From: an uncultured archaeon
GTDB lineage: Archaea > Aenigmatarchaeota > Aenigmatarchaeia > CG10238-14 > SCSR01
Reading direction: 5' to 3'
DNA length: 64,000 nt
Assembly: GCA_964512235.1 (NCBI GenBank)
Contig: CAZEGD010000001.1
Location: forward strand, 42,874-106,873
Both the position numbers and the translations under genes were made by a program. This document shows positions 10,308-46,690 of this stretch, in pieces; position 1 is the first letter of the stretch, and the number at the start of each line of letters is the position of its first letter. The notes below the pieces were generated by a model. That model did not search any database, was not told where the DNA came from, and worked only from the letters and a program-made list of their open reading frames with translations.

Positions 10308-10378
10308 ATGTAAAAATCTTAGCAAACCATAATAAAAAGCTTAAGTAAGAACAATTTAATATAAGTTACTGTTGTAAA

Positions 10379-10466: not shown

Positions 10467-10512
10467 CTCCAACGAAAAGATTAAAAATAGAGAGACTAAT
10501 GAAATATATTGG

Positions 10513-10634: not shown

Positions 10635-10712
10635 TCTTAAGATAAAGCCCATTCAAAACCTGATATGAGCCTAAAGGATAACAGTTATCGTTGAGTAAAT
10701 CTTAACTTATTC

Positions 10713-11249
10713 ATGAAATTTACGGTTCACAACATGGTAATTACGGTTGAATTTTCTGGTAAAATAGATCTTAACAAGCTATTCAAAAAACTCGAAAATT
10801 CTGAGTACGAACCAAAGCAGTTCCCCGGTTTGGTGTATAGGATGAAAAAGCCGAGAGTGAGCTTTTTAATATTCTCTTCTGGAAAGATGAACTGTACAGG
10901 CGCTACAAGCTTGAAAGAGGCAAAAAACGCGATAGGTAAGATGCTGAAAATATTCAGACAAACTGGAATAAAAACACACAAGCCGAGGATAGAAATTCAA
11001 AATATCGTCGCATCCGCCGAACTATATGCAAGGTTAAAACTCGATACCATAGCATTTAATTTGGAAAATTCTGAGTACGAACCAGAGCAGTTCCCTGGAC
11101 TAGTTTACAGAATAGCCAAGCCGAAGGTTGCATTTTTGCTGTTTGGTTCTGGGAAGATAGTATGTACTGGTGCAAGAAATACAAAGCAAATAGGGGAAGC
11201 TATCAACTACCTCACTAGGAAGTTGAAGAAAGTTCATGCTTTCAAATAA
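10713..11249 (+). CDS. tbp: TATA-box binding protein
   Basis: Two internal repeats: NSEYEPKQFPGLVYRMKKPRVSFLIFSSGKMNCTGA and NSEYEPEQFPGLVYRIAKPKVAFLLFGSGKIVCTGA. Confidence 0.95.
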   Translation: MKFTVHNMVITVEFSGKIDLNKLFKKLENSEYEPKQFPGLVYRMKKPRVSFLIFSSGKMNCTGATSLKEAKNAIGKMLKIFRQTGIKTHKPRIEIQNIVASAELYARLKLDTIAFNLENSEYEPEQFPGLVYRIAKPKVAFLLFGSGKIVCTGARNTKQIGEAINYLTRKLKKVHAFK

Positions 11250-11380
11250 TATTGACTTTTCAAGTCCCTATACTCAATTATAACGTATTATATAGTCCAC
11301 AATACTGCAACTCTTTTAAATCTTCCCCATTTTACACATCAAACTTATATCTCTTAATTTTCCCTATACAATTGGTAAGA

Positions 11381-11494
11381 ATGAGCGAGACGACCATAGG
11401 CGTAAGCAAAAGGCTCAAGCGAGAACTGAACAAGAAAAAGAAGCACAAAAAGGAAAGCTACGAGGAAGTCATCTGGTGTCTCATAAGAAAATAG
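11381..11494 (+). CDS. Small ribbon-helix-helix / VapB-like protein (37 aa)
   Basis: MSETTIGVSKRLKRELNKKKKHKKESYEEVIWCLIRK follows the I-x-V-S...L...K...ESY..VI..L pattern of short archaeal antitoxin-like proteins. The track ORF (11252) has an implausible N-terminal extension. Confidence 0.4.
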   Translation: MSETTIGVSKRLKRELNKKKKHKKESYEEVIWCLIRK

Positions 11495-11558
11495 TTTAGA
11501 ACAACCAATAACGTAACATTTAAATCCTCTGCACAACCCAACTAATTTTTAGAGAGAT

Positions 11559-11894
11559 ATGTCAAAAAGCATGTCGCTGTCTAGATTGAACAGGACATTA
11601 TATGCCAGGGTTGGCGGCAGAATCCCGAAATCTTGCATTCCCAGTAATCTTTTCGACTCAATTGAAAAGGCATTACATTTCCTCAAAGAGAGACTATCTT
11701 CAATTGACTTTAAATACGGGCCGTTGAAAGGTGACTTAAAGAGATGGAAAGATGTCCTACCTGAAGCCGAGAAGTTGATAGAAGAGCATAATGGAGGTAG
11801 CCCGAATTATGAAAGAGAACATGTGCTTGCATCACTCCAGATTTTGAACATTTACAACGGATATAAAGACCTTCTAGAGGCATACGATTCATAA
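11559..11894 (+). CDS. Hypothetical protein (111 aa)
   Basis: ORF only. Confidence 0.35.
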   Translation: MSKSMSLSRLNRTLYARVGGRIPKSCIPSNLFDSIEKALHFLKERLSSIDFKYGPLKGDLKRWKDVLPEAEKLIEEHNGGSPNYEREHVLASLQILNIYNGYKDLLEAYDS

Positions 11895-11944
11895 AGGCAT
11901 GACAGGAACAGAACTAATATACATGTTCTATCTAAGATAATTTT

Positions 11945-12748
11945 ATGGTTGACTTGAAGTTTGTGACAGATGTCTTTTCTGAAGAGGAGGCAAACGTCAT
12001 TGCAGTTAGGGTCAACTGTCCACAGTCTCTGATAGAAGCCAGTCGGATGGTCGAACCTTTTGACATTGACAGACAAAAGAATCTCTTAGAAGATGTGAAG
12101 ATTTTCGATGCGGGAGAAGCAGACTTAGACGGTGTATATAATGAGATCAAAGAAGTCATTACTGGAAAAAAGATTCCATTGATTCTTGCTGAAAGGCATA
12201 TTGCAAGCTTGGAAGCCATTCGGGCTTTACCAGAGGGTACAAAGATAGTAGTTTTTGATGCACATGCTGATCTGAAGGATGAATATTCAGAAGGCAATTA
12301 CAAACCTGTAGATGAGAAGAGAAATTATGCAACATGGCTTCGCAGAGCTTGTGAGATAATTGACCCGAAGAATGTATGCTTGATTGGAGTTAGATCGTGT
12401 GATGAGGATGAGTTTGAATTTATGAAAGACAGCGGGTTACTTTATTTTACAATTAATGATATTAAGAGTGGTGTGGAAAGCGTTAAGCAACGCCTGCAAA
12501 AATTTATAGGTGATTCATCAGTTTATGTGAGCATAGATATGGATGTATTTGACCCGTCGATTGTACCTGCTGTAGAGAATCCAGAGCCAAACGGTATATT
12601 ATATAGTGACTTTTTGCAGCTGAGTGAAGTCTTGGAGAAGATAATAGGAATAGACTTGGTCGAGATTCGACCATTAGCTAAAAACAGAGTTACAGAGTTC
12701 CTTGCAGTAAAGGTTATATTTAAGCTGTTGTCATTAATTTTTAGTTGA
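11945..12748 (+). CDS. speB: Ureohydrolase family (agmatinase/arginase-like)
   Basis: VVFDAHADLKDEY and YVSIDMDVFDPSIVPAVENPEPNGI are the Mn-binding DAHxD and SxDxDxxDP motifs. Confidence 0.8.
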   Translation: MVDLKFVTDVFSEEEANVIAVRVNCPQSLIEASRMVEPFDIDRQKNLLEDVKIFDAGEADLDGVYNEIKEVITGKKIPLILAERHIASLEAIRALPEGTKIVVFDAHADLKDEYSEGNYKPVDEKRNYATWLRRACEIIDPKNVCLIGVRSCDEDEFEFMKDSGLLYFTINDIKSGVESVKQRLQKFIGDSSVYVSIDMDVFDPSIVPAVENPEPNGILYSDFLQLSEVLEKIIGIDLVEIRPLAKNRVTEFLAVKVIFKLLSLIFS

Positions 12749-12757
12749 TTGTTAAAA

Positions 12758-12843
12758 GCGGGGGTCCGATAGTCTGGTCAATTCGGCTAGCTTGAGGTGC
12801 TAGTGGGTTAGTCCCTACGTGGGTTCAAATCCCACCTCCCGCA
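12758..12843 (+). tRNA. tRNA-Leu (anticodon GAG), type II with long variable arm
   Basis: Acceptor GCGGGGG/CTCCCGC. Anticodon stem CTAGC/GCTAG, loop TTGAGGT. Variable arm TGGGTTAGTCCCTAC. T arm GTGGG-TTCAAAT-CCCAC. Confidence 0.9.
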
Positions 12844-12897
12844 TTTAAAAAATCCCTTTGGAAAAGCTATAAATCTCTTCCCTTTCTCTATTATCTT

Positions 12898-13428
12898 ATG
12901 GTCAAAAAGGTAGCTGTATTAGGTCCATCTGGCTCGTTCTCAGAAGAGGCGGCTGTTGAGAGGTATGGGAAGGATATTATACTGGTCTATGGGAAGAAAT
13001 TTGATGACGTGTTAGATCTCGTGGAGATGGGAGAAGCGGACATTGCATTCCTTCCGGAACGGACTTCAGTGGGGGGACCAGTGTACCCGGTTCTTGATGC
13101 AATGTTGAACCATTCGCTTTTCATTACAGAAAAGTATGATTTCGAGCCGACATATTGCCTTGTTGGGAAGGGAGAGGAAAGTGACATTAAAAAGGTAGGT
13201 TCGCACCCACATGCATTGATTGCCATGAAAAAATATCTGGACAAAAACTTTCCAAATGCTGAAAGAGTGGAGACTCCGAGCACGTCCTTTGCTGCCCAGC
13301 TGGCATCAGAGAACCCGACATTCGGGGCCATAGCAAGCCGGACCGCGGCCAAGATATACAATCTGAAAGTGTTTTACAGTGTACAGTTCCCCCGGCCAAG
13401 GAATGGAAACGCACGCCTGAAGAGATAG
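12898..13428 (+). CDS. Prephenate dehydratase (PDT) domain protein, lacks ACT domain
   Basis: VAVLGPSGSFSEEAA...FLPERTSVGGPV...VGSHPHALIAMKKYL...FGAIASRTAAKIYNLKV resembles the PDT catalytic domain. The ORF ends ~15 aa after the PDT-like part with unrelated residues. Confidence 0.6.
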   Translation: MVKKVAVLGPSGSFSEEAAVERYGKDIILVYGKKFDDVLDLVEMGEADIAFLPERTSVGGPVYPVLDAMLNHSLFITEKYDFEPTYCLVGKGEESDIKKVGSHPHALIAMKKYLDKNFPNAERVETPSTSFAAQLASENPTFGAIASRTAAKIYNLKVFYSVQFPRPRNGNARLKR

Positions 13429-13497
13429 AATTTGGCATAAAGGTCAGATGAGTCTCAAAACATTTTTATAACTAAGAATTCCACCTCCCACATCATG

Positions 13498-14763
13498 TTA
13501 ATTTGCTTTTAATAGAATTCTTTTACCAGTGACATCATTTAGCAAATTTTGCAATTCTTTCAATTTTTCTTCTTTATCTTTTTGTAACCTTTTTCTTCTC
13601 TCTCCAATCATTTCATTCTCAATCTTAGTTTCTTCCATTCTTCTCTTTAGCTCATTAATCTCATTTTCCAATTTATTCTTTCTCTTTGGAACTTCCTGCA
13701 ATTCTATCCTTTCTTCTTGTCTTTCCAATTCCTCTGAAAGCCCTGAATATTCCTCAAGGATTTTTCCCATGGTATTGTCCTCTATCATCCTTTCAATAAC
13801 AGCCAAGAATTTGCCGCTATCCTTCAAATTCATCTTCCCCTCAATTATATTTGTTTTCATACCTTTGATGGCAGACATGAAAACTTCTCCCTTAGGATCT
13901 TTAGATAAAATGGATTCAAAGGAATGTTGTGCATAATCATCCAAAATTCTATTTTTAACAGACCATTTGTATTTCCTCAGGGGCTTTTCCACTTTTGCGA
14001 GAGATTGTATAAAGTCAGACTTTTTATTCTGCAGATTCATTTTCATTTCTTCTTTAATCCTCCGCATCTCTAAGAATGCCTTCCATTCATTGCCATCGAG
14101 TAATTTTTTCAACTCATCTTCAATTTTCTTATTCCTATCCTCCATTTCTTTCATTGTCTTCTCCAATTCCTTTGTTTCATCCTTCTTCAGCTCTTCTGTT
14201 AATCTTAATACTTCATTAGCAACCTCTTGCGTCCTTAGCAATTGCACGTTGGACTCTGCAAATTCTTTTACTATATTCCCCAGTCTCTTGTCTATTTCGA
14301 CTATCTGGCGGAAGCTCTCTATTACTTTATCTGCTTCCTTTTCGAACAATTCCTTCAAAAATGCATACTCTCTCACTGTTTTTGCGTTTATGATATTGAG
14401 TAATTTGGCAGTTTCATTATGGAAATTTAGGATAGAAGTCATGTCTTCTCCCATCGGTTTTTGTATTTGCTTGACCAGACTTTTCATCTTATTCGCAAAA
14501 CTCTTTCTGCTTCCCACAGCTTTTCTTATAAGCATGCGATCGTTTATTGTGGAATATGGAGCTTGTCCAAGAATTTCCAGTTGGTCTTGCATAGTATTGG
14601 CAGCCATCTGTAAGTTTGCATATTCCCTTTCAGCTGACTCTTTTAGAGGCTTGAAATCCTTTTTCATCTTCTCTGCTAGGAACCCTTCTACTTCTTTCAG
14701 CTGCATCTTCTCTTCTTCAAACTTTTCTTCTCTTTTTCCAAAAATTCTGTCTAACCAACCCAA
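13498..14763 (-). CDS. Long K/E-rich coiled-coil protein (421 aa)
   Basis: Heptad-like charged sequence throughout (e.g. EELERQEERIELQEVPKRKNKLENEINELKRRMEETKIENE). No enzymatic motif seen. Confidence 0.55.
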   Translation of the reverse strand: MGWLDRIFGKREEKFEEEKMQLKEVEGFLAEKMKKDFKPLKESAEREYANLQMAANTMQDQLEILGQAPYSTINDRMLIRKAVGSRKSFANKMKSLVKQIQKPMGEDMTSILNFHNETAKLLNIINAKTVREYAFLKELFEKEADKVIESFRQIVEIDKRLGNIVKEFAESNVQLLRTQEVANEVLRLTEELKKDETKELEKTMKEMEDRNKKIEDELKKLLDGNEWKAFLEMRRIKEEMKMNLQNKKSDFIQSLAKVEKPLRKYKWSVKNRILDDYAQHSFESILSKDPKGEVFMSAIKGMKTNIIEGKMNLKDSGKFLAVIERMIEDNTMGKILEEYSGLSEELERQEERIELQEVPKRKNKLENEINELKRRMEETKIENEMIGERRKRLQKDKEEKLKELQNLLNDVTGKRILLKAN

Positions 14764-14828: not shown

Positions 14829-14852
14829 GGTTCAAATCCCACCTCCCACATT
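14829..14852 (+). repeat. Partial copy of the tRNA-Leu 3' end (T loop to acceptor end)
   Basis: ggttcaaatcccacctccc is identical to 12822-12840. One mismatch follows (a for g), then catt. Confidence 0.85.
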
Positions 14853-14932: not shown

Positions 14933-15529
14933 TTAATTTCTAAAATTATATTTTTTTAAAAGTTCAGTATTTATACCTTCAATTAATAACTTTTCTTCCT
15001 CTGAAATTTCTCCTAATCTACCGATTTCAAAACTTAAAACAACTTTATTACCAACATATCTTTTAGGATGGTCAACAAATAAACTATAATATGAGAAAGA
15101 CGATGGAGAAGGCCAACTTAGTTGTTCATTTCTCGTCCTACAACTCAAAGTTACAAAAACATTTCCTCTATGCATTATAGCTTTAGCAATTTCTTCTGGA
15201 TTTTCTGTTTTAGCAGCCACATTTTTTATTTCAAAATTTACTTTTTCAAGATACTCTACAATTTCAAATAATTCATCTCGAAAATCTTTTTCTAATTCTT
15301 TTTGAACAGTTAATGCTGGAGTTGGCATACCTCTTGGACCAGGTGCATAAAGAACTCCGTCTTCAAATTTTATTAATTTCTCTGGTTCACCTTTTCCTCT
15401 TACATTAAAGCGTCCATACTGGAGAATGTCTGCAGAAAAATACCCAGATTTTCTACCTTCATATAAGATTTTAGGATATTCAACATGGCTTTGACCAGTA
15501 GTTAGTAAAGTACTTGTTTCTGCACCCAT
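14933..15529 (-). CDS. Hypothetical protein (198 aa) in a very AT-rich cassette
   Basis: ORF only. My hand count for 14941-15000 is 10 G+C of 60. Confidence 0.45.
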   Translation of the reverse strand: MGAETSTLLTTGQSHVEYPKILYEGRKSGYFSADILQYGRFNVRGKGEPEKLIKFEDGVLYAPGPRGMPTPALTVQKELEKDFRDELFEIVEYLEKVNFEIKNVAAKTENPEEIAKAIMHRGNVFVTLSCRTRNEQLSWPSPSSFSYYSLFVDHPKRYVGNKVVLSFEIGRLGEISEEEKLLIEGINTELLKKYNFRN

Positions 15530-17287: not shown

Positions 17288-17530
17288 ATGAAAGACGAGG
17301 AAAAAGAGAAAGATGTAAAACTGGGAGAGTTTCAACTCAAGCAAGATTCCGTCCTTGTGATAAAGAAGACCACATACAAAGGCAATGAAAGGATAGACTT
17401 TCGCGTGTGGAAGAACTCACCAACATACAAAGGCCCAACTAAGCAGGGGTTTGTTCTGCAGATGGACCAAATAGACGATTTCATAGAGATGATAGAAGAG
17501 ATGAAGGGAAAGTTGAAAGAAGTGGAATAA
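17288..17530 (+). CDS. PC4/Sub1-like ssDNA-binding fold protein (80 aa)
   Basis: VLVIKKTTYKGNERIDFRVWKNSPTYKGPTKQGFVLQMDQIDDFIEMIEEM follows the PC4 C-terminal-domain pattern (KG..hDhR.W....+PTKKGhsL...Q...h). Recognised by eye only. Confidence 0.45.
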   Translation: MKDEEKEKDVKLGEFQLKQDSVLVIKKTTYKGNERIDFRVWKNSPTYKGPTKQGFVLQMDQIDDFIEMIEEMKGKLKEVE

Positions 17531-36598: not shown

Positions 36599-38254
36599 GT
36601 GATTGATTTCAAGGACGAAAAGGTAATTATCACATCTGGGTTGCCGTATGCAAACGGTGAGCTGCATCTAGGACATGTAACGTCTACATATTTACCGGCA
36701 GACATATTTGCACGCTACTGCAGGCTGAAAGGTAGAAGAGTAGTCTTTGTATGTGCGACCGACGATTTTGGAACACCGATTCTTATAAAAGCCGAGCAGG
36801 AAAAGAAGGAATTGAAGGACTTTGTTGCATATTGGAATAGGCATGATAGGGAAGATTTTGAAGCTCTGGGCATATCCTTTGATATTTTCGACAAGACTAG
36901 CTCGAAGGAGAATATAGAATTCGTACAGAGTTTTTTCCTTACGCTGAAAAAGAAAGGTTTCATATTCAAGCAGACAGTGCAACTACCTTACTGTGAAAAA
37001 TGCGGCAAATTCCTGCCTGATAGATATGTAAAAGGTACTTGCCCGTTCTGTGGGGCAGAAGAGCAGTACAGTGACTGGTGCGAGAAGTGTGGGAGAGTGT
37101 TCCAATCGGGGCAAATCAAAGACCCGCACTGTGCAATCTGCGGAACTACACCAGTGACAAAGATCAGCGATCATTACTTCTTTAAACTGTCTGCCTTTGC
37201 TAAGCAGCTTAATGAATGGTTCAACAAAAACAGCGATTTGCAGAGTGAAGTGAAAAATTATGTGCTTAGATGGATAGAGGATGGGTTGCTTGACTGGGAT
37301 ATTACACGGGATATGCATTGGGGTGTGCCGATTCCCTTGGAAGATGCGAAAGGCAAAGTGTTCTATGGCTGGTTTGACAACCAGTTGTGCTACATATCCA
37401 CAGCACTCAAGCATCTGGCAAGCAAGAAGATTGATGGTGAGAATTTCTGGAATTCCGCTCGCATCTACCACTTCATAGGCAAGGACATAGTATACCACCA
37501 CTATTTATTTTTGCCGGCTATGAGGATTGGTGAAGGCAGGTTCAAGCTGCCTGAATTCATACCCGTACGCGGTCATTTGTTGCTGCAGGGTAAGAAGTTT
37601 TCAAAGAGTAGGAACTGGTATGTAGGGTTGCATGACTTCTTGGATAGCTTTCCGGCAGATTATTTACGATATTATCTCTCAACCATTACAACTTACAGCC
37701 AGGCAGACATCAACTTCGATTGGAAAGATCTCCAAGCGAGGATAAACAACGAGCTAGTTGCGACTATAGGCAACTTTATTCATAGAGCCCTGACATTCAT
37801 TGACTCGAAATTCGACGGCAAAGTACCTGAGCCGGATGGATTTGATGATGTGGATAAGGAGTTTGAAGAAAGGATTAAGACTATTGCTACGGAAGTAAGT
37901 GAATTTATAGAAAATAATGAACTACATAGAGCATTGAAGAAGATAATAGAGTTTGCAGGCGCCTGCAACCAGTACTTCCAGAAAAAGGAGCCCTGGAAGG
38001 GCAATGCAAACAATTGTCTCTATCTCAGTATAAACGCAGTCCGTACTCTTGCCATCATACTAGAGCCGTACTTGCCTTTTGCAGCAGAAGATTTGTGGAA
38101 TCAGTTGAATCTCAAGGGATCTGTACACAAGCAAAAATGGGAATCTGCGAAAGAATTAAAGATTAAAACCGGTCACAAAATCAATAAGCCAAAAGTTCTT
38201 TTCAAGAAGATTGAAAACGAGGAGATAGAAAGAGAGATTAAGAAACTAAGGTAA
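36599..38254 (+). CDS. metG: Methionyl-tRNA synthetase
   Basis: LPYANGELHLGH. Zn knuckles CEKCGKF...CPFCG...CEKCG...CAICG. KFSKSRNW (KMSKS-type). GTG start. Confidence 0.92.
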   Translation: MIDFKDEKVIITSGLPYANGELHLGHVTSTYLPADIFARYCRLKGRRVVFVCATDDFGTPILIKAEQEKKELKDFVAYWNRHDREDFEALGISFDIFDKTSSKENIEFVQSFFLTLKKKGFIFKQTVQLPYCEKCGKFLPDRYVKGTCPFCGAEEQYSDWCEKCGRVFQSGQIKDPHCAICGTTPVTKISDHYFFKLSAFAKQLNEWFNKNSDLQSEVKNYVLRWIEDGLLDWDITRDMHWGVPIPLEDAKGKVFYGWFDNQLCYISTALKHLASKKIDGENFWNSARIYHFIGKDIVYHHYLFLPAMRIGEGRFKLPEFIPVRGHLLLQGKKFSKSRNWYVGLHDFLDSFPADYLRYYLSTITTYSQADINFDWKDLQARINNELVATIGNFIHRALTFIDSKFDGKVPEPDGFDDVDKEFEERIKTIATEVSEFIENNELHRALKKIIEFAGACNQYFQKKEPWKGNANNCLYLSINAVRTLAIILEPYLPFAAEDLWNQLNLKGSVHKQKWESAKELKIKTGHKINKPKVLFKKIENEEIEREIKKLR

Positions 38255-38293
38255 ATTAGATAAGTCCAGATTTGCAATTAATTATTGAGAAGT

Positions 38294-38773
38294 ATGAAAA
38301 AAGTAAAGGACTTTATGAACAAGAAAGTCGTTTCCTTCAAGCCTGAGGATTCTATATTCGATGTTGCCCAACTATTTTCAAGACTTAACATCTCCGGCGC
38401 GCCCGTGGTAAGCAGGGGTAAAGTGCTTGGTGTCGTAAGCGAAACAGACATTGTCAAATTTATGAGTATGAAATTGTCACAATCGCTCAATTCAAAGTCT
38501 CTGCCTCTACAGTCCCTAAGCATGATTTGTCTAAACTTAATCAAGACAGGGAAGAGTCATTTAGCCATAAAGGAAGATTTGGAGAGAATATCTAGGATAA
38601 AAGTCAAAAACGTTATGACAAAGGAGGCTGTGAGTGTGGGCCCGGATACGAACATATTCGATGCTGCTGCTATGATGGAAAGGCATGACATCAATAGGTT
38701 GCCTGTCGTGAGCAGGGGTAAACTCGTGGGTATAATCGCACGTGCGGATTTGATAAAGGCGCTTGTAGATTAG
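38294..38773 (+). CDS. CBS-domain pair protein
   Basis: Two CBS-like units: VKDFMNKKVVSFKPEDSIFDVAQLFSRLNISGAPVV and VKNVMTKEAVSVGPDTNIFDAAAMMERHDINRLPVV. Confidence 0.85.
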   Translation: MKKVKDFMNKKVVSFKPEDSIFDVAQLFSRLNISGAPVVSRGKVLGVVSETDIVKFMSMKLSQSLNSKSLPLQSLSMICLNLIKTGKSHLAIKEDLERISRIKVKNVMTKEAVSVGPDTNIFDAAAMMERHDINRLPVVSRGKLVGIIARADLIKALVD

Positions 38774-38821
38774 GACCTATGCAACTCAACGAACTTCTCT
38801 ATCGATCTATCGTATGTACGC

Positions 38822-39316
38822 TCATCTTTTCAAGACTTTCATAAATCTTTCAGGATGCGATGGCGTTATCAAATAATGCCTGCCGCCTTTTGCAGTTATT
38901 ATCAATCCGTCCCTTAAGTTTGTTATTATTGTCCTTGTCCATCCTAGACTTGGAATGTAAAATCTGCCAGAATAGAAGCTCGCACCGACTCTGAAATAGA
39001 ATGGGGTTAGAGTTCTTTCAACTTTTTTAATGTCTTTCAGCTTGAGTCTTATGATTGCAAATGGCGACCAGGACGTCAATATCCCGTCTTTCACGACATA
39101 CTTTGTTCTATAAAGACTTAGAGTCGTGGCGATTAGCAGTATTGTAGTGAAAGACATGACAGCTATGGTTATAACTTGTGATGGCATTGAGGAAGAATAA
39201 ATAAGAGTAAAGAGAGAAATCCCAAGAAATACGGAGATGACAAGAATTGATAATGTTATATACATGCCACCTATCCATTTACTGATGTATGGTTTGTTGA
39301 CAATTTTCTTTGGCAT
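38822..39316 (-). CDS. Membrane protein with bacterial-PH (DUF304-like) domain
   Basis: Two N-terminal TM segments, then YRTKYVVKDGILTSWSPFAIIRLKLKDIKKVE. Confidence 0.45.
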   Translation of the reverse strand: MPKKIVNKPYISKWIGGMYITLSILVISVFLGISLFTLIYSSSMPSQVITIAVMSFTTILLIATTLSLYRTKYVVKDGILTSWSPFAIIRLKLKDIKKVERTLTPFYFRVGASFYSGRFYIPSLGWTRTIITNLRDGLIITAKGGRHYLITPSHPERFMKVLKR

Positions 39317-39464
39317 AATTACTATATTCTAATAGGATTTTAAAAACGCCGAGGGTGGACGCTGTACAACTTGTACAGAGCCTAAAGTTCGGTGTAAAAT
39401 CAAAAAGAATATTAAATACAGAAAGATAATAAACTTTTTAAATTCAAAATCCACCTTCTTAAAT

Positions 39465-40589
39465 ATGGTGTTCACAACATTAGAAGATGGGAGGATAAAA
39501 TACCAAGGGAATAAGTTATTTCCACCTATCGATGATATAAAAAGTAGAAATTTAGCCGTAGAACATATAGAAAATAGAATACATAGTATAAAAACCAATC
39601 AAATGTGGGAAAAAATAACTCTTATAAATGACATTATCTTCAAATCTACAGTTGACTTTTTCTCTTCTATAGGAGCAAAATTCATTCCTTTACCACTTAC
39701 AACAAAAATGATATCTTCTCCGGGAGCTGTTTATGGAAAGAAAAAAATCAATTATACAACTGATACAAAACCAATAAAGTTAAAATGGTTCAATTTATCT
39801 GAACCTGTCTTTCTGTCAGAATCTTCACAAATATACCTAGAACTTGTTCTTCTACAAAATAATATCGACCATGTTTTTTCTATTTATAACTCTTTTAGGA
39901 AAGAAGAAGCAGATACTACTCACCTATCGGAGTTTCATCATATAGAATACGAAGGACACGTCACACAGGAAAAAAACTTGGAAACGATAGAAAGTCTTGT
40001 GAAAACTATTTTAAAAAATATTCTAAAGAAAAAATATCTTTTAGAGTTTTTCCTAGAAGAAGGGGATATAAGAAATTTGGAAATCCTTGCAAAGGATCAC
40101 TTTATCCAAATAAAATTTAAAGACGTTCTAAGAATGTTATACGAGGAGACAAAAGATGAAAAATACAAGAAATTTACAACTAAGTATTTTGGATTTTGGG
40201 AAGAAGTTAAGATCACAGAAATATTGGGTAATAAAATAGTAGTTATCAAAGAGTTTCCATTATTAGAAACGGCGTTCTACCATGCACCAAAAGTTGTTGA
40301 TGGAGTACAAGTTGCAAACAATGCTGATATAATATGGCCTAGTTATAAGGAATTTGTAGGAAGTGGACAACGTGTAGGAACACTAAAAGAACTGATGAAA
40401 AAAGCAAAATTTTTCACTCTACCAAAAAAAGATTATGAACCATATTTACAATCCAGAAGATACGATGACTATAAAATAAGTTCTGGATTTGGAATGGGCT
40501 GGGAAAGATTATTACAAGGTTTACTTAAAATGCCTACCATAATATCAGTTTGTCACTTTCCAAGAATCCACGATAAAATGATACCCTAA
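39465..40589 (+). CDS. AsnRS/AspRS-like class IIb catalytic core without anticodon-binding domain (AsnA-like)
   Basis: Motif 1 region GAKFIPLPLTT. LSESSQIYLEL. Motif 2 VFSIYNSFRKEEADTTHLSEFHHIEYE. EFVGSGQRVGTLKEL...YEPYLQSRRYDDYKISSGFGMGWERLL parallels the AsnRS pattern GEIIGGSQRE...YWWYLDLRRYG..PHSGFGLGFERL. No OB-fold N-domain. Confidence 0.7.
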   Translation: MVFTTLEDGRIKYQGNKLFPPIDDIKSRNLAVEHIENRIHSIKTNQMWEKITLINDIIFKSTVDFFSSIGAKFIPLPLTTKMISSPGAVYGKKKINYTTDTKPIKLKWFNLSEPVFLSESSQIYLELVLLQNNIDHVFSIYNSFRKEEADTTHLSEFHHIEYEGHVTQEKNLETIESLVKTILKNILKKKYLLEFFLEEGDIRNLEILAKDHFIQIKFKDVLRMLYEETKDEKYKKFTTKYFGFWEEVKITEILGNKIVVIKEFPLLETAFYHAPKVVDGVQVANNADIIWPSYKEFVGSGQRVGTLKELMKKAKFFTLPKKDYEPYLQSRRYDDYKISSGFGMGWERLLQGLLKMPTIISVCHFPRIHDKMIP

Positions 40590-40643
40590 TTAAGTTATTA
40601 TTTTTAACTATCAATTAATTATAATTCAGAGGATGATTATACT

Positions 40644-41684
40644 ATGAAATTGATTAAACCACCTTCATTGCAAAAAGGGGATAGTATAGCTATAGTAGCT
40701 CCCTCTTCTGGTTTAGCTGCTTTATTTCCTCATCGTTTGGAAAGAGCTGTAAAGTTTTTGGAAAAAATTGGTTATAAAATAAAGGTTTTTCCGACAGCTC
40801 GCTCTATAAAGAAATGGAGTTCGGGGAGTCCTAAGGAAAGGGCATGCGATATAAACAATGCATTTGAAGACAATGAGGTTAAAGCTATAATATGTTCCAT
40901 AGGAGGTATAGTCGCGAATCAGACACTCAAATACATTAATTTTGATATTATAAGGAAGAAGCCAAAAATATTTTGCGGGTACTCGGATATCTCAGTTCTA
41001 CATTATGCGTTTCATACAGTCGCCGGTTTAGTCACGTTCTACGGTCCTTGTGCAATGACCCAATTTGGTGAATATCCTGAACCATTAAAATATACAGTAA
41101 ACCACTTTGAAATGGCTGTAGGGAATAACAAACCTATCGGTAGAATAAACCCCTCTGAAAAATGGACAGATGAAGTGTTGGATTGGGCTAACAAGTTAGA
41201 TATTGAAAGACCAAGAGGGCTAAAGACTAACTCAGGATTTCAATGGTTACGTGAGGGTAAGGTTTCTGGCCGTGTAATGGGGGGGTGTATATCTTCTATT
41301 GTACATCTCCGTGGAACCAAATTCTGGCCGAATCAAAAAGACCGAATATTTTTTATAGAAATTTCAGAGGGTCAAGAGTCTTCTAGTGGTGAACCACTCT
41401 CATACGTGGATTCATATCTGACAAATCTTGAAATTTCAGGTGTCTTTCAAGATATAAATGGTCTTATAGTAGGTAGACCCTTCAGGTACACCAATGAAGA
41501 TACAGAGGAATTAAAAAGGATAATTTTAGAACAAACAAAAGAGTACGATTTCCCAATTTTATTTGGTGCGGACATTGGTCATACGGATCCAATGATAACA
41601 ATACCACTAGGAACTAAAGTAGAGTTAGATTCGAACTCTAATAGCTTTGTTTTTCTAGAATCTGGAACATCAAACAACCTTTGA
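40644..41684 (+). CDS. S66-family LD-carboxypeptidase / MccF-like serine peptidase
   Basis: GDSIAIVAPSS. Nucleophile elbow FCGYSDISVLH. C-terminal FGADIGHTDPMITIPLG (Ser-His-Glu family layout). Confidence 0.8.
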   Translation: MKLIKPPSLQKGDSIAIVAPSSGLAALFPHRLERAVKFLEKIGYKIKVFPTARSIKKWSSGSPKERACDINNAFEDNEVKAIICSIGGIVANQTLKYINFDIIRKKPKIFCGYSDISVLHYAFHTVAGLVTFYGPCAMTQFGEYPEPLKYTVNHFEMAVGNNKPIGRINPSEKWTDEVLDWANKLDIERPRGLKTNSGFQWLREGKVSGRVMGGCISSIVHLRGTKFWPNQKDRIFFIEISEGQESSSGEPLSYVDSYLTNLEISGVFQDINGLIVGRPFRYTNEDTEELKRIILEQTKEYDFPILFGADIGHTDPMITIPLGTKVELDSNSNSFVFLESGTSNNL

Positions 41685-41733
41685 CTCATGGGAATAGAAA
41701 GACATTAATCCTTTTGGGTATATGACTTAACTT

Positions 41734-42864
41734 ATGAGAGTTTCGAGTCTAATTGGACACAAAATAAAAACGAGGAAGAAGTTTGATGATCTTGCAGAGC
41801 TTTTGACCAGCAGTTTTTTAGTAGAAACCTCTTTTTTCGACAACGATGGCTACAAAGGCCTTATAAAATTATCCATTGAAAAGTCTGTAGAGAATAATCT
41901 AGAAGCGTTGTTGAAAGAGCTAATGCAGAGAAGTGGAATACAACCAATTGAGTTGCCTACACTTCAACCTTATAATATTTTTGAGACTACTGATAGGATA
42001 GAAAAGTTTGGTAGAGAATTTGTGTCCACTACAGACGATAGGGTAGTTTTTCCCACATCAGAAGAACCCATAATCAACTATCTGGGCCGATTTGCAAACT
42101 TGTCATACAGAGAATTACCGATGTTAGTTTACCAATTTAAAAACTTCTTCAGGGCAACAACTCCGAAAGCCCTTATACGTCTACAAGAGTTTAAAGTACT
42201 TGATATATACAGCTTGAATGAAACTGAGGACTCCCTGAGAGAAACAATAAAAACAATAATAGAACCGATGTTTTTCCAACTGTGGGAAAGGCTAAACCTC
42301 AAAACAATACAACTGAAGAAAGATGAAAACTACATAGACATAAAAGTAAAGACAGCAGAAGGAAATGATACGATACCTAAAACTGGCGAAAGATGTCTAG
42401 GAATTGGCGTAATAATGAACCTTGGCAACAACTATTCAAAAAAATTTGGATTGGGGGTTGCCGATTCTTCTAATAACCTAGTGTATCCGTATCTTGGATC
42501 CTACGCTATAGGGATAGAACGGTTGATTTATGCTATGGTAGACCAAGGAAGAACAAAATCAAAAGGGGTCAACACTATTAAATGGCCTGAAGGAATCGAA
42601 CCTGTAACTTATTATGTTATAAAAATAGGAGAAAGCAATTATGGTGAAAAAATATATAAAGAACTTATTTCTAGAAATAAAAGAGTTCTATTGGATGATA
42701 GTAAAGACACTTTAGGAACAAAATTCGCACGGGCCTATGCCATAGGAGCACCATACATCATTAGTGCTGGCCCAAAAGAAGAGTCTAGAAAGATTGTAGG
42801 TATTGAAGAAAGTTACACAGGTGAGAGATGGGAAATAGAGTTTGATAAACTATTGTGCATGTGA
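41734..42864 (+). CDS. Divergent ProRS-like class IIa paralogue (motif 2 degenerate)
   Basis: LPTLQP, FPTSEEPI, SYRELPMLVYQFKNFFRATTPKALIRLQEFKVLDIYSL (compare YQF..KYRDE..R.GLFRTKEFLMKDAYSF in the next gene), GSYAIGIERL, and a HGTP-type anticodon-binding domain YYVIKIGES...LLDDSKDTLGTKFARAYAIGAPYIISAGPKE. Confidence 0.6.
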   Translation: MRVSSLIGHKIKTRKKFDDLAELLTSSFLVETSFFDNDGYKGLIKLSIEKSVENNLEALLKELMQRSGIQPIELPTLQPYNIFETTDRIEKFGREFVSTTDDRVVFPTSEEPIINYLGRFANLSYRELPMLVYQFKNFFRATTPKALIRLQEFKVLDIYSLNETEDSLRETIKTIIEPMFFQLWERLNLKTIQLKKDENYIDIKVKTAEGNDTIPKTGERCLGIGVIMNLGNNYSKKFGLGVADSSNNLVYPYLGSYAIGIERLIYAMVDQGRTKSKGVNTIKWPEGIEPVTYYVIKIGESNYGEKIYKELISRNKRVLLDDSKDTLGTKFARAYAIGAPYIISAGPKEESRKIVGIEESYTGERWEIEFDKLLCM

Positions 42865-42869
42865 ATACT

Positions 42870-44132
42870 ATGAGAAGGTCACAACTTTTTACACCAACAG
42901 GCAAAGCCGATGAGAGAGAAATGCTTAGTCGAAGTCTGGAATTAAGTTTGAGGGGTGGCTTTGTTCGCCAGACAGGTTCTGGCCTTTATAGTTATACACC
43001 CACAGGTGTCAGGGTTCTTTATAATATATCATCTCTTGTCAGAAAGGAAATGAATAATATTAATGCACAGGAAGTACTTCTTCCATCCTTACAGCCAGCA
43101 GAGTTGTGGAAGGAGAGCGGTAGATGGGAAGTATACAAAGGTAGTATATTTACTATCCAAGATAGCCAAAACAAGAAGTATTGTCTAGCCCCAACATGCG
43201 AAGAAGCCATGGTAGATCTTGTGAGGGGTAATGTCAGATCATATAAGAACTTGCCACTAACCTTATATCAGTTCAGCCAGAAGTATAGGGATGAAAAGGT
43301 AAGACAGGGTCTCTTCAGAACAAAAGAATTCTTAATGAAAGATGCTTATAGCTTCCATTTTAGTGAGGATGACCTCGATAAGACGTATCAGAAGATGAGG
43401 CAGGCATATACTAACATCTTTGAAGAACTAGAACTGGATTTCTTCTTATCTTCAGCCGAGACTGGTGAGATGGGAGGGAAAAGGTCTGAAGAACTTATTG
43501 CCTTGACGGATGTTGGAACAGACAAGTTCGTTGTTTGTTCACAGAAGGAATGTCATTTTGGAAGCCCCATAGATAGTGGTATAAAAGAGTGTTCTATCTG
43601 TGGTAGAGACTTGCAACTGAAAACAGGTATTGAATTAGCTCACTTGTTCAAGTTGGGAGACCGATACAGTAAACAAATGGATCTAACCTTCGCTGACAGA
43701 GATGGTTCGATAAGATATATGGAAATGGGTTGTTATGGGATAGGGATTAGCAGACTAATCCCAACAATAATAGAACAGAACAATGACGAAAAAGGTATAA
43801 TATGGCCAGAAAATGTGGCTCCATTTAAAGAAGTTATTATTCCTACAAGCCAAAAGAAGTCAAATCTCGCTAGACTCTCTAATCAGTTATACTATGAGCT
43901 GAACGAAAAAAGATTAGATCCGTTGTTGGACGATAGAGATGTTTCAGCTGGCACAAAATTTGCTGAATCTGATTTGATGGGGATTCCAAGAAAAATAATT
44001 ATAGGTCCTAAATCCTTGGCCAAAGGTAAGATAGAGGTGGAGCATCGTAGAGGCGGTAAAGATTTTTTAGAAATTGAAAATTTCGTTGCAGAATATATAA
44101 AAAAGTATTATTTAGGACATACAACTGCCTAA
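42870..44132 (+). CDS. proS: Prolyl-tRNA synthetase, bacterial-type architecture without INS editing domain
   Basis: MRRSQLFTPTGK...GSGLYSYTPTGVRVL...LLPSLQPAELWKESGRWEVY...LAPTCEEAM...SYKNLPLTLYQFSQKYRDEKVRQGLFRTKEFLMKDAYSF...MGCYGIGISRL...DDRDVSAGTKFAESDLMGIPRKIIIGPK. The track start 42855 is a GTG 5 codons upstream. Confidence 0.75.
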   Translation: MRRSQLFTPTGKADEREMLSRSLELSLRGGFVRQTGSGLYSYTPTGVRVLYNISSLVRKEMNNINAQEVLLPSLQPAELWKESGRWEVYKGSIFTIQDSQNKKYCLAPTCEEAMVDLVRGNVRSYKNLPLTLYQFSQKYRDEKVRQGLFRTKEFLMKDAYSFHFSEDDLDKTYQKMRQAYTNIFEELELDFFLSSAETGEMGGKRSEELIALTDVGTDKFVVCSQKECHFGSPIDSGIKECSICGRDLQLKTGIELAHLFKLGDRYSKQMDLTFADRDGSIRYMEMGCYGIGISRLIPTIIEQNNDEKGIIWPENVAPFKEVIIPTSQKKSNLARLSNQLYYELNEKRLDPLLDDRDVSAGTKFAESDLMGIPRKIIIGPKSLAKGKIEVEHRRGGKDFLEIENFVAEYIKKYYLGHTTA

Positions 44133-44188
44133 GATGTTGATAAAGTAATAATAAATTTATTGTAAACTTACAAACTCATATTATAGAA

Positions 44189-45013
44189 ATGATAAATATG
44201 TCAAGAGAAATCACACCAGCTAGTATAAAGGACATGTCCTATATAGATTTTATGGCTTTTCTCAATGAGACCAACAAACCGCCAGGAGGAAAGAAATCAC
44301 TAATAGATGTAGCTCAACTATGCTTCTTGAATAAGGACAAGAAAGTTCTTCATGTAGGTTGTAGTACTGGATATTCGACCTTTGAACTTAACCGATTAAC
44401 AGGTTGTAAAATAGTAGGGATAGACATCAGTTCCAACATGATTAAAAGAGCCAATGAGAAAAGAGAGAAAGATATGAATAGAACCAATGTAACATTTCGA
44501 GTTGCCGATGCCACAAAATTTCCTTTCGAGGACAATACATTCGATGTTGTGTTTTCGGCGGGTGCTACAGCTTTCTTTGAGGACATACAAAAAGGAGTAG
44601 CTGAATGCAAACGTGTTGTTAAACCATGGGGCTTCATGGTCGATGTAAACTTCTATTATAAGAAAGACCCACCGCAGAGTTTGATAGATGAATTGAATAA
44701 GACTATGGATATCCACATAAAAAAACGGAGTAAGGAAGATTGGATAAGAATATACGAAGATGCCGACCTGGATGTTTATTATATTAAAGATGGAAAAACA
44801 AAAACTGTTACGAAAGAGCAAATAGAAGAATACGCAGAAAAAACCGCTAGGAGAGTGACCTCTGGTTCAGAAATCATAAAAACGATAAAGGAAAAACTGA
44901 TACCCATAATGGAGCTTTTCAATAGAAACAATGAGTACTTAGCATACTCGATATTCATCTTTCGCAAGCACCCTGACGAAGAGCCTAAAGATATCTACTT
45001 GTTTGAACCTTAA
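44189..45013 (+). CDS. Class I SAM-dependent methyltransferase
   Basis: Motif I VLHVGCSTGYST. GIDISSNMIKRANEK. FDVVFSAGA. Confidence 0.7.
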   Translation: MINMSREITPASIKDMSYIDFMAFLNETNKPPGGKKSLIDVAQLCFLNKDKKVLHVGCSTGYSTFELNRLTGCKIVGIDISSNMIKRANEKREKDMNRTNVTFRVADATKFPFEDNTFDVVFSAGATAFFEDIQKGVAECKRVVKPWGFMVDVNFYYKKDPPQSLIDELNKTMDIHIKKRSKEDWIRIYEDADLDVYYIKDGKTKTVTKEQIEEYAEKTARRVTSGSEIIKTIKEKLIPIMELFNRNNEYLAYSIFIFRKHPDEEPKDIYLFEP

Positions 45014-45132
45014 CCAAATATTTTTCAAGAATACAATTAGTTCAACGCCTACTCAACATTCTATTTCCAATTTTCAAAAAATTGAGCTAGATGCTGATTT
45101 GACAGCAAAAACTAAAGAATTGAAAAATTCTA

Positions 45133-45215
45133 CGCCGAGGGTGGGATTTGAACCCACATGGGCAAAGCCCGCTGGTTTTCAAGACCAGTGCACCACCTGG
45201 TTATGCGACCTCGGC
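45133..45215 (-). tRNA. tRNA-Ser (anticodon UGA), type II
   Basis: Acceptor GCCGAGG/CCTCGGC, discriminator G. Anticodon stem CTGGT/ACCAG, loop CTTGAAA. Long variable arm CGGGCTTTGCCCAT. T arm GTGGG-TTCAAAT-CCCAC. Confidence 0.9.
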
Positions 45216-45274
45216 ATACCTAAAGAATAATTCATAGAAATAAGATATAAAAGTACTCTCCCAATCCAATGAGC

Positions 45275-45577
45275 TTAGACATCTTTCACTGAGTTTACGA
45301 CTTCCAGCTTGCCTGACCTGGGTATGTTAAGCTGAATCTGGTCCCTGAACACAGTAATGTATGCCCCGGAGACTGTAACCATATCCCCTATCGCTATGGA
45401 CTTTATTTGATCTTCCCACAACGATAGCTTGATTTGGCCACTATCATCTTCTATTTCCGCATCAGCTACTTGCTTAGGGCCATATCGAGTGTTCACCTGT
45501 CTAGGCTCTGATATGTCTATCACTTTGCCTTCTACAGTTACGTTACTCATGCCCTGTTTAACTTCATTTATCTTCAT
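45275..45577 (-). CDS. Single OB-fold nucleic-acid-binding protein (SSB/RPA-like)
   Basis: VTVEGKVIDISEPRQVNTRYGPKQVADAEIEDDSGQIKLSLWEDQ...GDMVTVSGAYITVFRDQIQLNI has an OB-fold pattern. Confidence 0.6.
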   Translation of the reverse strand: MKINEVKQGMSNVTVEGKVIDISEPRQVNTRYGPKQVADAEIEDDSGQIKLSLWEDQIKSIAIGDMVTVSGAYITVFRDQIQLNIPRSGKLEVVNSVKDV

Positions 45578-45709
45578 GACTACAACCTAATAACACTTTT
45601 TTAACACACCAGTTTAAATATTTAACTTCTGTGTTGAAATGATTATGAGCAACTCCAATTTAACGGACTTAGACCCGCATACCTCTGAGTAGATATTATA
45701 GATGCATAT

Positions 45710-46690
45710 CTATCTAGACTTGACTTTCCATTTTGGATAAGTTTCTCTTTTCATAAAGACTCTGTCCGTTCTCACTGCTATGCCGCGTTTTGATTTAAAC
45801 ATCTCTTTGCTAGTCATTCTTGCTATGCCAATTGCGACAAGCTCGCCCTTCAGAGTATACACAGCTACAAGCTCGCCCTTTACTATGCCATCTTGGATTC
45901 TCGTGAGACCGGAAGCATAGACTGGCGAACCGTTGCATATGGCACCGACAGCTGAATCCTTCACGAGCACGCGCTTCACATGTAAAATAGCGTGATCTGT
46001 GGGGATTAGAATCTTTTTCAGTTTCTTCTCTTTGCCTTCTTGCCAGAATTCGTATGCATCCTTCACTTCCAGCAAACTATGGCTCTCCTCTTCCGTGAAT
46101 GGTCCCACTCTTGTCCTTCTGAGCTCAGCCATGTGCGCACCTATGCCCAAGCTCTGGCCGATGTCATGGCATAGCTTGCGTATGTACGTGCCTGCCTGGC
46201 ATCCTACTTTGAAGAGTACGTCTTTGCCATCTATTTCAAGAATATCGAAAAAGTAGATTTCGCGCACCCTGAGCCTCCTTGCAACGGCAGACTTCACAGG
46301 AGGCATCTGCTTAATCTTGCCTATGAATCTTTTCACTGCATCTTCTATGGCTTTCTTGGGCAGCTCCTTGTGCAAGTGCATTATGCCTACATATTCTTTA
46401 TCCAAGTTGGAGAGTGCAGGCATAGCCTTCGTAGCATTGTCCATAGCAATGGGTAGTACGCCTGTCACTGCAGGGTCGAGAGTGCCTGCATGCCCGCAAT
46501 TCTTCAGGGCAAAAATATCACACACCCATCTAGTCACTTGATGGCTAGTCGGTCCACTCTGCTTGTCTAGGATGATGACAGAATTGCTTATGTGTTCTTC
46601 AATAGTCCGCTGCTCCAACGGTTTGCCATAAGCCTCGTCAGTCTCTTCCTCAGATTTAATCAGCCATTTCGCTTTCTTTAAATTTGGCAT
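45710..46690 (-). CDS. cbf5: H/ACA RNP pseudouridine synthase Cbf5
   Basis: GPTSHQV, GHAGTLDPAVTGVLPI (TruB catalytic Asp motif), and a C-terminal PUA-like segment. Confidence 0.9.
   Translation of the reverse strand: MPNLKKAKWLIKSEEETDEAYGKPLEQRTIEEHISNSVIILDKQSGPTSHQVTRWVCDIFALKNCGHAGTLDPAVTGVLPIAMDNATKAMPALSNLDKEYVGIMHLHKELPKKAIEDAVKRFIGKIKQMPPVKSAVARRLRVREIYFFDILEIDGKDVLFKVGCQAGTYIRKLCHDIGQSLGIGAHMAELRRTRVGPFTEEESHSLLEVKDAYEFWQEGKEKKLKKILIPTDHAILHVKRVLVKDSAVGAICNGSPVYASGLTRIQDGIVKGELVAVYTLKGELVAIGIARMTSKEMFKSKRGIAVRTDRVFMKRETYPKWKVKSR

Follow-up and report, generated by a model that had tools for sequence, protein, structure and literature searches.

Agrocin 84, to which the agn genes of plasmid pAgK84 (Rhizobium rhizogenes K84) belong, is the sole characterised compound of its class (PMC8323819). 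AgnA is a truncated asparaginyl-tRNA synthetase (AsnRS; other synthetases are abbreviated likewise by amino acid, as in ProRS for prolyl and LeuRS for leucyl) and the proposed maker of the phosphoramidate bond, AgnB2 is a LeuRS that gives immunity, and agn-like clusters with MetRS occur in Actinobacteria (PMC8323819, PMC4392301); AgnC1 is remotely ProRS-like (PMC8323819). The payload of a second described system, microcin C, is a non-hydrolysable aminoacyl-adenylate (PMC9239234), and enzymes of the MccD, MccE and MccF types decorate microcin C or protect against it (PMC4010828, PMC9239234). Here we describe a cassette of five genes beside tRNA-Ser(UGA) in a 64-kb stretch of DNA from an uncultured archaeon of the Aenigmatarchaeota (contig CAZEGD010000001.1 of assembly GCA_964512235.1, positions 42,874 to 106,873), called the window below and numbered from its first letter. 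An earlier note, made from the letters of the window, had proposed that these genes were inserted at the tRNA; the cargo, which it did not recognise, is the more interesting part. With moderate confidence, we read the cassette as a mobile module of the agn core that makes, and gives immunity to, a mimic of prolyl-adenylate.

The relationship to agn is seen in three of the five open reading frames (ORF1 to ORF5, Table 1). A tblastn search of plasmids with ORF1 matched agnA of pAgK84, the two proteins being 25% identical over 344 amino acids (aa; E 1e-24), and ORF5 is 30% identical to AgnB1 over 256 aa (E 2e-47) and ORF2 38% identical to AgnC5 over 330 aa (E 2e-76). Judged by these alignments, the cassette is very probably homologous to the agn core. 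The annotated agn order is agnA, agnB1 (an S-adenosylmethionine (SAM) methyltransferase), agnB2 (the resistant LeuRS), agnC1, agnC2-C4, agnC5 ("MccF-like protein"), agnC6 and agnC7; in four related loci, L052, L071, L099 and L077, an AgnA-like gene, a SAM enzyme, an extra class I synthetase, a ProRS-like gene and an S66 gene reproduce the order agnA-agnB1-agnB2-agnC1...agnC5. By position ORF3 would be the counterpart of AgnC1, a homology that is unproven.

Table 1. Features of the cassette, and the tRNA genes at the borders of two related cassettes (last two rows, in the coordinates of their own loci)
Feature	Position	Strand	Description
Left repeat copy	39346-39358		Displaced 3' end of tRNA-Ser, distal att-like site; exact match to 45132-45144
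Palindrome	39362-39378		CTGTACAA-C-TTGTACAG, perfect 8+1+8, starting 3 nt inside the left copy
ORF1	39465-40589	+	374 aa, AgnA-like class II (D/K/N) adenylate-forming core without OB anticodon-binding domain
ORF2	40644-41684	+	346 aa, S66 serine hydrolase of the MccF/AgnC5 clade
ORF3	41734-42864	+	376 aa, diverged ProRS-like class IIa paralogue with anticodon-binding domain
ORF4	42855-44132	+	425 aa (420 aa from ATG 42870), bacterial-type family II ProRS
ORF5	44189-45013	+	274 aa, class I SAM-dependent transferase, AgnB1/MccD type
Right repeat copy	45132-45144		Final 12 nt of the intact tRNA-Ser plus 1 flanking nt, proximal att-like site
tRNA-Ser(UGA)	45133-45215	-	Intact, apparent integration target; Rfam RF00005, 56.3 bits
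L073 tRNA-Gly(gcc)	9627-9698	-	17-nt 3'-end repeat at 9626-9642 and 5193-5209
L084 tRNA-Asp(gtc)			14-nt 3'-end repeat at 9915-9928 and 17408-17421

The classification of the five proteins was supported by profile, structure and family comparisons. ORF1 carries the Pfam domain tRNA-synt_2 (7e-28), and its residues 107-374 match the AsnRS catalytic domain in the PDB (1e-21). It scores below every NCBIfam cut-off for AsnRS and asparagine synthetase A (147 bits vs 414 for AsnRS), the best PDB fold matches of its AlphaFold model (pLDDT 82.6) are AsnRS structures (TM 0.72-0.75), and residues R145 and E147 of motif 2 and R348 of motif 3 are invariant across 25 homologues, whose mean column identity is 67%. 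ORF2 contains the Pfam domains Peptidase_S66 and S66C and matches MccF-type structures at 1e-64 to 1e-43 (4e-46 for MccF 3gjz, 1e-43 for E. coli MccF 3tla); within its family the nucleophile Ser114 and His313 are kept in 44 of 44 members and Glu242 in 33 of 44. On these grounds ORF2 is predicted to cleave an aminoacyl-nucleotide and so to give immunity. We rejected a role as a cell-wall LD-carboxypeptidase (LdcA): the protein is far closer to the MccF type than to murein LD-carboxypeptidases (1e-17 to 1e-9), and the host is an archaeon, a domain in which we know of no murein. ORF5 carries Pfam methyltransferase domains, and its best match of known structure is MccD (5fcd, 4e-24), the next methyltransferase following at 2e-14.

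The two ProRS-related proteins differ in kind. ORF3 has the Pfam domains tRNA-synt_2b and HGTP_anticodon and matches bacterial ProRS in the PDB (6e-25), scoring 151 bits against a ProRS cut-off of 558 bits; its family keeps the motif 2 Arg in 23 of 26 members and the motif 3 Arg in all 26. ORF4, which overlaps the end of ORF3 by 10 nucleotides (nt), passes the cut-off of TIGR00409 proS_fam_II (473 bits against 306.7) and aligns with Staphylococcus aureus ProRS (1e-99) in two blocks that skip the INS editing domain. In place of INS, at about aa 230-255 (43540-43640), it has a Cys-x4-Cys ... Cys-x2-Cys segment (VCSQKEC...ECSIC), possibly a zinc knuckle. Among ORF1, ORF3 and ORF4 it alone passes a canonical synthetase cut-off, though it lacks INS. 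Successive ORFs are separated by 54, 49, -10 and 56 nt, and the arrangement that the earlier note had described, five closely spaced genes on the + strand between flanking genes on the minus strand, is correct. A housekeeping synthetase operon was considered and rejected: ORF1 and ORF3 fail all curated cut-offs, and the genes are accompanied by others of the MccF, MccD, HIT and GNAT types. To the left of the cassette, at a distance of 1.1 kb, is a MetRS gene (36599-38254), and MetRS-like genes are found inside the related modules L040, L044 and L057; we rejected the neighbouring gene as a part of the module, since the repeats do not enclose it, its G+C is normal and it scores above the equivalog cut-off for MetRS, and it is probably housekeeping.

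ORF1 is the invariant anchor of a module that is found well beyond the window. Its homologues are 50-60% identical to the window protein throughout, whatever the linked synthetase, and the minority of matches with organism names fall in Nanoarchaeota, Woesearchaeota, Pacearchaeota and Natrinema. Modules were counted by ORF clustering of 88 loci, in non-redundant sets. Where at least 5 kb lay downstream of the ORF1 homologue (n = 31), a SAM enzyme was present at 29 loci, an S66 gene at 27 and an extra synthetase-like gene at 26; where at least 5 kb lay on both sides (n = 17), the counts were 17, 15 and 15. Natrinema sp. J7-2 is a culturable carrier. The partner synthetase depends on the locus and may be ProRS-like, LysRS, diverged LysRS-like, AsnRS or MetRS-like; Natrinema has LeuRS, and elsewhere there is a LeuRS-like protein without an editing domain. 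The ProRS-like proteins of these modules are very diverse, with a median identity of 22% to ORF3. Other recurrent genes encode a HIT hydrolase, a GNAT acetyltransferase, a pyridoxal phosphate (PLP) decarboxylase of the Orn/DAP/Arg type, radical SAM enzymes, ATP-binding cassette (ABC) exporters and an AsnC-type regulator. The core, then, is found again in dozens of loci from DPANN and haloarchaea, and its synthetase partners are interchangeable. No description of agn-like modules in archaea was found in the literature searched, the coverage of which was incomplete, so that an earlier description is possible; apparently new are an agrocin 84-type module cut to its core, its archaeal host, its presumptive ProRS target and its occurrence, integrase-less, at different tRNA genes.

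Several individual modules had unusual compositions. One contig, L077/L078 (about 2900-14000), holds two modules back to back, the first with a class I LeuRS-like gene, a ProRS-like gene, HIT and S66, and the second with a 385-aa class IIb (ORF1-family) protein as anchor, a SAM enzyme and S66. At L040 (454-6290), tRNA-Lys(ttt) and tRNA-Lys(ctt) lie beside and inside a module with a genuine class II LysRS and a MetRS-like gene, and L080 and L082 each combine a class II LysRS-like gene and a class I LysRS within one module. At L017-L020 (2898-4254), the loci with the closest ORF1 homologues (60% identity), the module adjoins two toxin-antitoxin pairs, ParE/YafQ-like and MazE-type; such neighbours are typical of mobile or accessory regions.

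A module of this kind might serve the carrier's own metabolism, in the salvage or modification of aminoacyl-nucleotides or amino-acid amides or in an alternative charging or editing of tRNA, its likeness to antibiotic clusters then reflecting shared chemistry. DPANN archaea have reduced genomes and depend on scavenging, and most carriers appear to be DPANN, to go by the organism names on a minority of matches; ORF4 scores as a genuine ProRS, and the NCBI annotation of AgnA-like proteins is asparagine synthetase A, all of which would suit such a role. Set against it, the partner synthetase swaps between loci with the remainder held constant, the module moves among tRNA sites and distant lineages, including a haloarchaeon and bacterial plasmids, it travels with five known types of antibiotic-immunity or decoration enzyme, and its distribution is patchy and not lineage-wide. 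We consider a metabolic role very unlikely.

The surroundings of ORF4 relatives bear on its function. Closest to ORF4, at 53-59% identity, is a small clade that also lacks INS; bacterial ProRS follow at 42-50%, and both of the close relatives looked up adjoin S66 genes. At L113/L114 the order is S66, HIT, ORF3 orthologue, ORF4 orthologue, radical SAM, regulator, ORF1 homologue and SAM enzyme. At L111 (9001-14059) the ORF4 orthologue (59% identical) is followed by S66 and a sodium:solute symporter, and adjoining them is an archaeal-type ProRS with ProRS-C_1, so that this genome has two ProRS genes; the locus has no ORF1 homologue and no SAM enzyme and is an apparent immunity-only set. As far as gene context can tell, these arrangements fit a spare, drug-insensitive ProRS, without proving it.

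They also bear on the main rival to production, namely that the cassette is a resistance-only island, with a bypass ProRS and an MccF-like hydrolase directed against the aminoacyl-adenylate-type antibiotics of neighbours and nothing made by the carrier. The minimal pair of ORF4-like ProRS and S66 at L111 would be just such an island, the window cassette has no exporter, and stand-alone homologues of MccF and MccE are common (PMC4010828). Two other genes count against this proposal: ORF1 and ORF5 match enzymes with assigned biosynthetic or decorating roles, no types in the module are more constant than theirs (29 of 31 loci have the SAM enzyme), and ORF1 keeps all class II catalytic residues. 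A purely protective role is thus in our judgement unlikely, and production together with immunity for a synthetase inhibitor is the reading we moderately favour.

We turn to how the cassette came to lie at tRNA-Ser. Repeats of the att type at tRNA genes are ordinary features, and the one here is well supported, although an integrase is lacking. The earlier note had reported a 13-nt repeat whose right copy was the 3' terminus of tRNA-Ser(UGA) plus 1 nt. By exact string count, ACGCCGAGGGTGG has just two copies in the window, at 39346-39358 and 45132-45144 and both on the + strand, and shuffles preserving dinucleotides contained it in 0 of 100 cases; the placements by ARAGORN (tRNA-Ser(tga), 45132-45216, minus strand) and Rfam agree with the reading of the right copy, the tRNA part of which consists of 4 nt of T stem, the 7-nt acceptor strand and the discriminator. 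When the tRNA strand is read, TTTT comes after the left copy, like a tRNA trailer, and the tRNA has the cassette on its 3' side, as is expected of an att site. From base composition, we estimate the chance of ACGCCGAGGGTGG recurring in 64 kb in the same orientation at about 2e-4, and at about 0.006 over a few registers and all 7 tRNAs of the window. Of 116 fetched loci, only same-population contigs and the closest relative, at its tRNA-Ser, contain the 12-nt core CGCCGAGGGTGG, and the core is absent from non-tRNA loci in about 1.2 Mb of fetched DNA, a check that the earlier note had proposed. A search for a longer or degenerate att site, with 23 nt of the tRNA end and up to 3 mismatches, gave no further copy, and an Rfam scan of 38000-46000 found nothing besides the tRNA.

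The composition of the cassette sets it apart. The G+C content of 39359-45131 is 0.352, compared with 0.416 in the rest of the window (z = -3.0), and the lowest-G+C stretch of 5.8 kb in the entire 64 kb begins at 39251. The left repeat marks the exact point at which G+C drops from 0.42 to 0.30, and G+C rises again beyond the tRNA. The tetranucleotide distance of the cassette from the rest is 0.296, compared with 0.143 +/- 0.032 and a highest value of 0.249 for other stretches, and the G+C of third codon positions (GC3) is 0.24-0.37 in the five genes and 0.435 +/- 0.074 in 63 other ORFs. The earlier note had left composition undecided on the strength of hand counts of G+C per 60 nt, of which four of five were correct (41001-41060 holds 29, not 26); by all three measures the cassette clearly differs from the rest.

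Other assemblies supported the arrangement. In four other samples, five short contigs match across the junctions with 100% identity (three left, one right), so that the arrangement is no assembly artefact, and all same-population contigs found contain the cassette, none showing an empty site. The closest relatives, the uncultured archaea L001 and L002, have a Cbf5 that is 68% and 65% identical, respectively, to that of the window and carry no cassette at this locus. The order in L001 is Cbf5, OB protein, tRNA-Ser(UGA) with an intron and a 3' end identical to that of the window (CGCCGAGGGTGG in + strand reading), and then an unrelated membrane protein; in L002 it is Cbf5, OB protein and a NOL1/NOP2 methyltransferase. 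In both, the downstream genes also differ from the left flank of the window. A search through homologues of the bPH membrane protein on that flank led to contexts that were not syntenic.

The 13-nt match could have arisen by chance, the five genes being native or having come by a route unrelated to the tRNA, for example homologous recombination of the flanks. Thirteen nucleotides is short, dozens of unrelated exact 13-mer pairs are expected per 64-kb window by our estimate, no longer imperfect similarity surrounds the two copies, and neither an integrase nor an empty site was found. This particular 13-mer, however, ends at the terminus of the tRNA, is on the proper side of it and stands where the composition changes; the estimate of about 0.006 covers any of the 7 tRNAs; and two other tRNAs show this configuration around the same module, with longer repeats (below). 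We regard a chance match as highly improbable, and an acquired insertion at the terminus of tRNA-Ser as likely; the site-specific integration proposed in the earlier note gains support from the composition, the recurring junctions and the tRNA-end repeats of the other loci. Each of the three checks that the note had named as able to refute it, on the locus in relatives, on the repeat at non-tRNA loci and on composition, left it standing. A split integrase of the SSV type was rejected, the border spacers being 106 and 118 nt and the bordering ORFs being ORF1 and the SAM enzyme. ORF1 relatives were absent from IMG/VR, giving no sign of carriage by viruses.

The perfect palindrome that the earlier note had placed 3 nt inside the left repeat was confirmed on reading the sequence. 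It occupies part of the 148 nt that separate ORF1 from the divergent gene for the bPH membrane protein, and might serve as an operator or as a dyad for recombinase binding. By our estimate, 64 kb would contain about 6 palindromes of this kind by chance, so only its position is notable, and no similar palindrome was found in 62 other distinct regions upstream of ORF1 homologues; it is a local feature.

Bracketing by tRNA ends was found again when 80 metagenome loci encoding ORF1 relatives were fetched and searched for tRNAs and repeats. At L073 there are exactly four genes between the repeats, for an ORF1 homologue, a SAM enzyme, a ProRS-like protein and S66, in a cassette of 4.4 kb with a G+C of 0.298 inside and 0.33 and 0.43 outside. 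Between the repeats of L084 are genes for an ORF1 homologue, a SAM enzyme, a LysRS-like protein, a radical SAM protein and S66, together with three small genes. In the window, L073 and L084 alike, the repeat covers the last 12-16 nt of the tRNA and ends at most one base from its terminus. No integrase was found in the L073 and L084 cassettes. Several other modules begin 31-64 nt from a tRNA gene. The recurrence at L073 and L084 makes chance very unlikely and implies that the module is the mobile unit itself or has been captured repeatedly at tRNA sites.

Several other observations at tRNA genes were made. First, two loci carry short-range duplications that look like scars of earlier insertion and excision: at L076 a 17-nt tRNA-Pro 3' end occurs at 6496-6512 and 6573-6589, about 60 nt apart, and at L034 a 14-nt tRNA-Lys 3' end occurs at 10859-10872 and 11012-11025, about 140 nt apart. 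These duplications suggest that tRNA-targeted integration is frequent in these archaea. Second, 19 nt of the 3' part of tRNA-Leu(gag) in the window (12758-12843), GGTTCAAATCCCACCTCCC at 12822-12840, are repeated 2 kb downstream at 14829-14847. The region around 14-16 kb is low in G+C (0.335-0.346) and contains an ORF (14933-15529) with an extreme GC3 of 0.12 and no Pfam match, and may be another insertion scar or island. Lastly, two tRNAs of the window contain introns: tRNA-Ile(gat), at 10379-10467, and tRNA-Glu(ttc), at 10513-10634, which has a 47-nt intron and was detected by the intron-aware run of ARAGORN and missed by the default run.

We propose the following course of events and functions. 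The segment 39359-45131 would have been acquired horizontally, entering the 3' end of tRNA-Ser(UGA) by site-specific recombination that left the 13-nt duplication; as the cassette has no recombinase, we infer either mobilisation in trans, by an integrase encoded at another place in the genome, or descent by decay from a larger element. ORF1 and ORF3, as adenylate-forming enzymes, would build an aminoacyl-nucleotide in which a stable linkage replaces the labile acyl-phosphate, probably an N-acyl phosphoramidate as in agrocin 84 and microcin C. In one possible route the activated carboxylate would first be amidated, the reaction type of asparagine synthetase A, and the N-P bond would then be formed with ATP. 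ORF5 would alkylate the product, most plausibly at the phosphate by analogy with MccD, and ORF2 would cleave toxic species inside the producer, as MccF does. ORF4 would be a drug-insensitive copy of the target that keeps proline charging going, the role of the AgnB2 LeuRS for agrocin 84. The predicted product is a mimic of prolyl-adenylate with ProRS as its target; on this identity of the target our confidence is evenly balanced. The chemistry and the immunity roles we infer from the known systems to which the proteins are related.

A number of observations weigh against this proposal. The repeat is just 13 nt long, no true empty site was reached through the Cbf5 relatives (GTDB genomes, identity at most 68%), whose synteny with the window ends at the tRNA, and an excision junction was not observed. 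Pfam detects a recombinase domain in none of the five cassette ORFs, as the earlier note had surmised, and no integrase was found in ten further unassigned ORFs of the window (Pfam), in its remainder (by eye) or adjoining any related module examined. The L084 cassette has no G+C contrast to its flanks. On the side of function, the identity between ORF1 and AgnA is just 25%, and the alignment of the ORF3-family profile with AgnC1 by hhalign is collinear and statistically weak (E 0.005, probability 7%). The agrocin 84 pathway lacks biochemical elucidation (PMC8323819), so that the enzyme roles are transferred from proposals and not from experiments. Finally, the five ORFs include neither an exporter, of which the Natrinema version has an ABC pair, nor genes for an uptake moiety.

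We tentatively extend the proposal, with less than even confidence, to archaea at large: mainly DPANN, and also haloarchaea such as Natrinema, may widely carry an integrase-less, tRNA-hopping cassette for antibiotics that mimic aminoacyl-adenylates, re-tuned by swapping synthetases (Pro, Lys, Leu, Met, Asn). If so, archaea would here yield their first family of natural products aimed at synthetases, ectosymbiotic DPANN might compete with microbes or control their hosts in this way, and the recurrent bracketing by 13-17 nt of tRNA end with no recombinase gene would point to an undescribed insertion mechanism, trans-acting or host-encoded. An active cassette would mean that genome-reduced, uncultured archaea invest in chemical antagonism and that such modules move between archaea and bacteria. 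An agn system reduced to 4-5 genes would be a minimal, testable set for the synthesis of non-hydrolysable aminoacyl-nucleotides by synthetase-like enzymes, and the interchangeable synthetase, which predicts the target of each variant, could guide mining for synthetase inhibitors and resistant synthetases.

Compared with islands inserted at tRNA genes, the cassette shares a repeat that duplicates the tRNA 3' end, an intact tRNA, cargo on its 3' side, foreign composition and accessory genes. It differs in having no gene for an integrase or excisionase and in being very small (5.8 kb, and 4.4 kb at L073), in which it resembles non-autonomous, trans-mobilised elements or decayed remnants.

The likeness to microcin C lies in MccD as the best solved match of ORF5, in the MccF type as the best matches of ORF2, and in the HIT, GNAT and PLP decarboxylase genes of related archaeal modules, counterparts of MccH and the two halves of MccE; we take the HIT protein to be of the microcin C protection type and the decarboxylase to be of the type of the MccE N-terminal domain. 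In contrast to microcin C, the cassette has no major facilitator superfamily (MFS) exporter, its presumed target is ProRS instead of AspRS, and the linking of the nucleotide would fall to synthetase-like enzymes. Pfam finds no MccB-type ThiF/E1 domain in the five ORFs, and no MccA precursor peptide was recognised, short peptide genes not having been searched systematically.

Two bacterial plasmid clusters, on the megaplasmid of Xenorhabdus bovienii CS03 (L115; NZ_FO818638.1) and in Peribacillus psychrosaccharolyticus (L116; NZ_CP068052.1), combine an AgnA-like "asparagine synthetase A", a class I SAM methyltransferase and S66 with a full synthetase (LeuRS in Xenorhabdus, AlaRS in Peribacillus) and a synthetase-related protein. 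They differ from the cassette in their bacterial hosts, an MFS exporter, further enzymes and other synthetases, and are candidate producers of leucyl- or alanyl-adenylate mimics. In chemistry, the product expected of a ProRS-linked module with a SAM enzyme has a parallel in phosmidosine, in which L-proline is joined to 8-oxoadenosine via an O-methylated N-acyl phosphoramidate. We know of no gene cluster for phosmidosine, and the likeness, drawn on chemistry alone, serves as a lead. Phosmidosine is a natural phosphoramidate nucleotide antibiotic of Streptomyces durhameusis (PMC6429109).

The agn system itself differs from the cassette in several respects. The host here is an archaeon, there are 5 genes as opposed to 17, the extra synthetase is ProRS where agn has LeuRS, and the site is a chromosomal tRNA as opposed to the conjugative plasmid pAgK84. 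Among the five ORFs there are no counterparts of agnC2-C4, agnC6-C7, agnD-F or the exporter gene agnG; with the genes for tailoring, uptake moiety and export lacking, the cassette matches the agn core only. The agnD-F genes presumably add the sugar-phosphate, opine-mimicking uptake moiety of agrocin 84. Within that core the correspondence covers a truncated AsnRS without anticodon domain (AgnA and ORF1), an MccF-like S66 hydrolase (AgnC5 and ORF2) and, as putative counterparts, a ProRS-like protein (AgnC1 and ORF3) and an additional complete synthetase (AgnB2 and ORF4), which sits where agn has its resistant LeuRS. AgnB1 directly follows AgnA, as the SAM enzyme directly follows the ORF1 homologue in most archaeal loci, and agn, like the cassette, is carried on mobile DNA.

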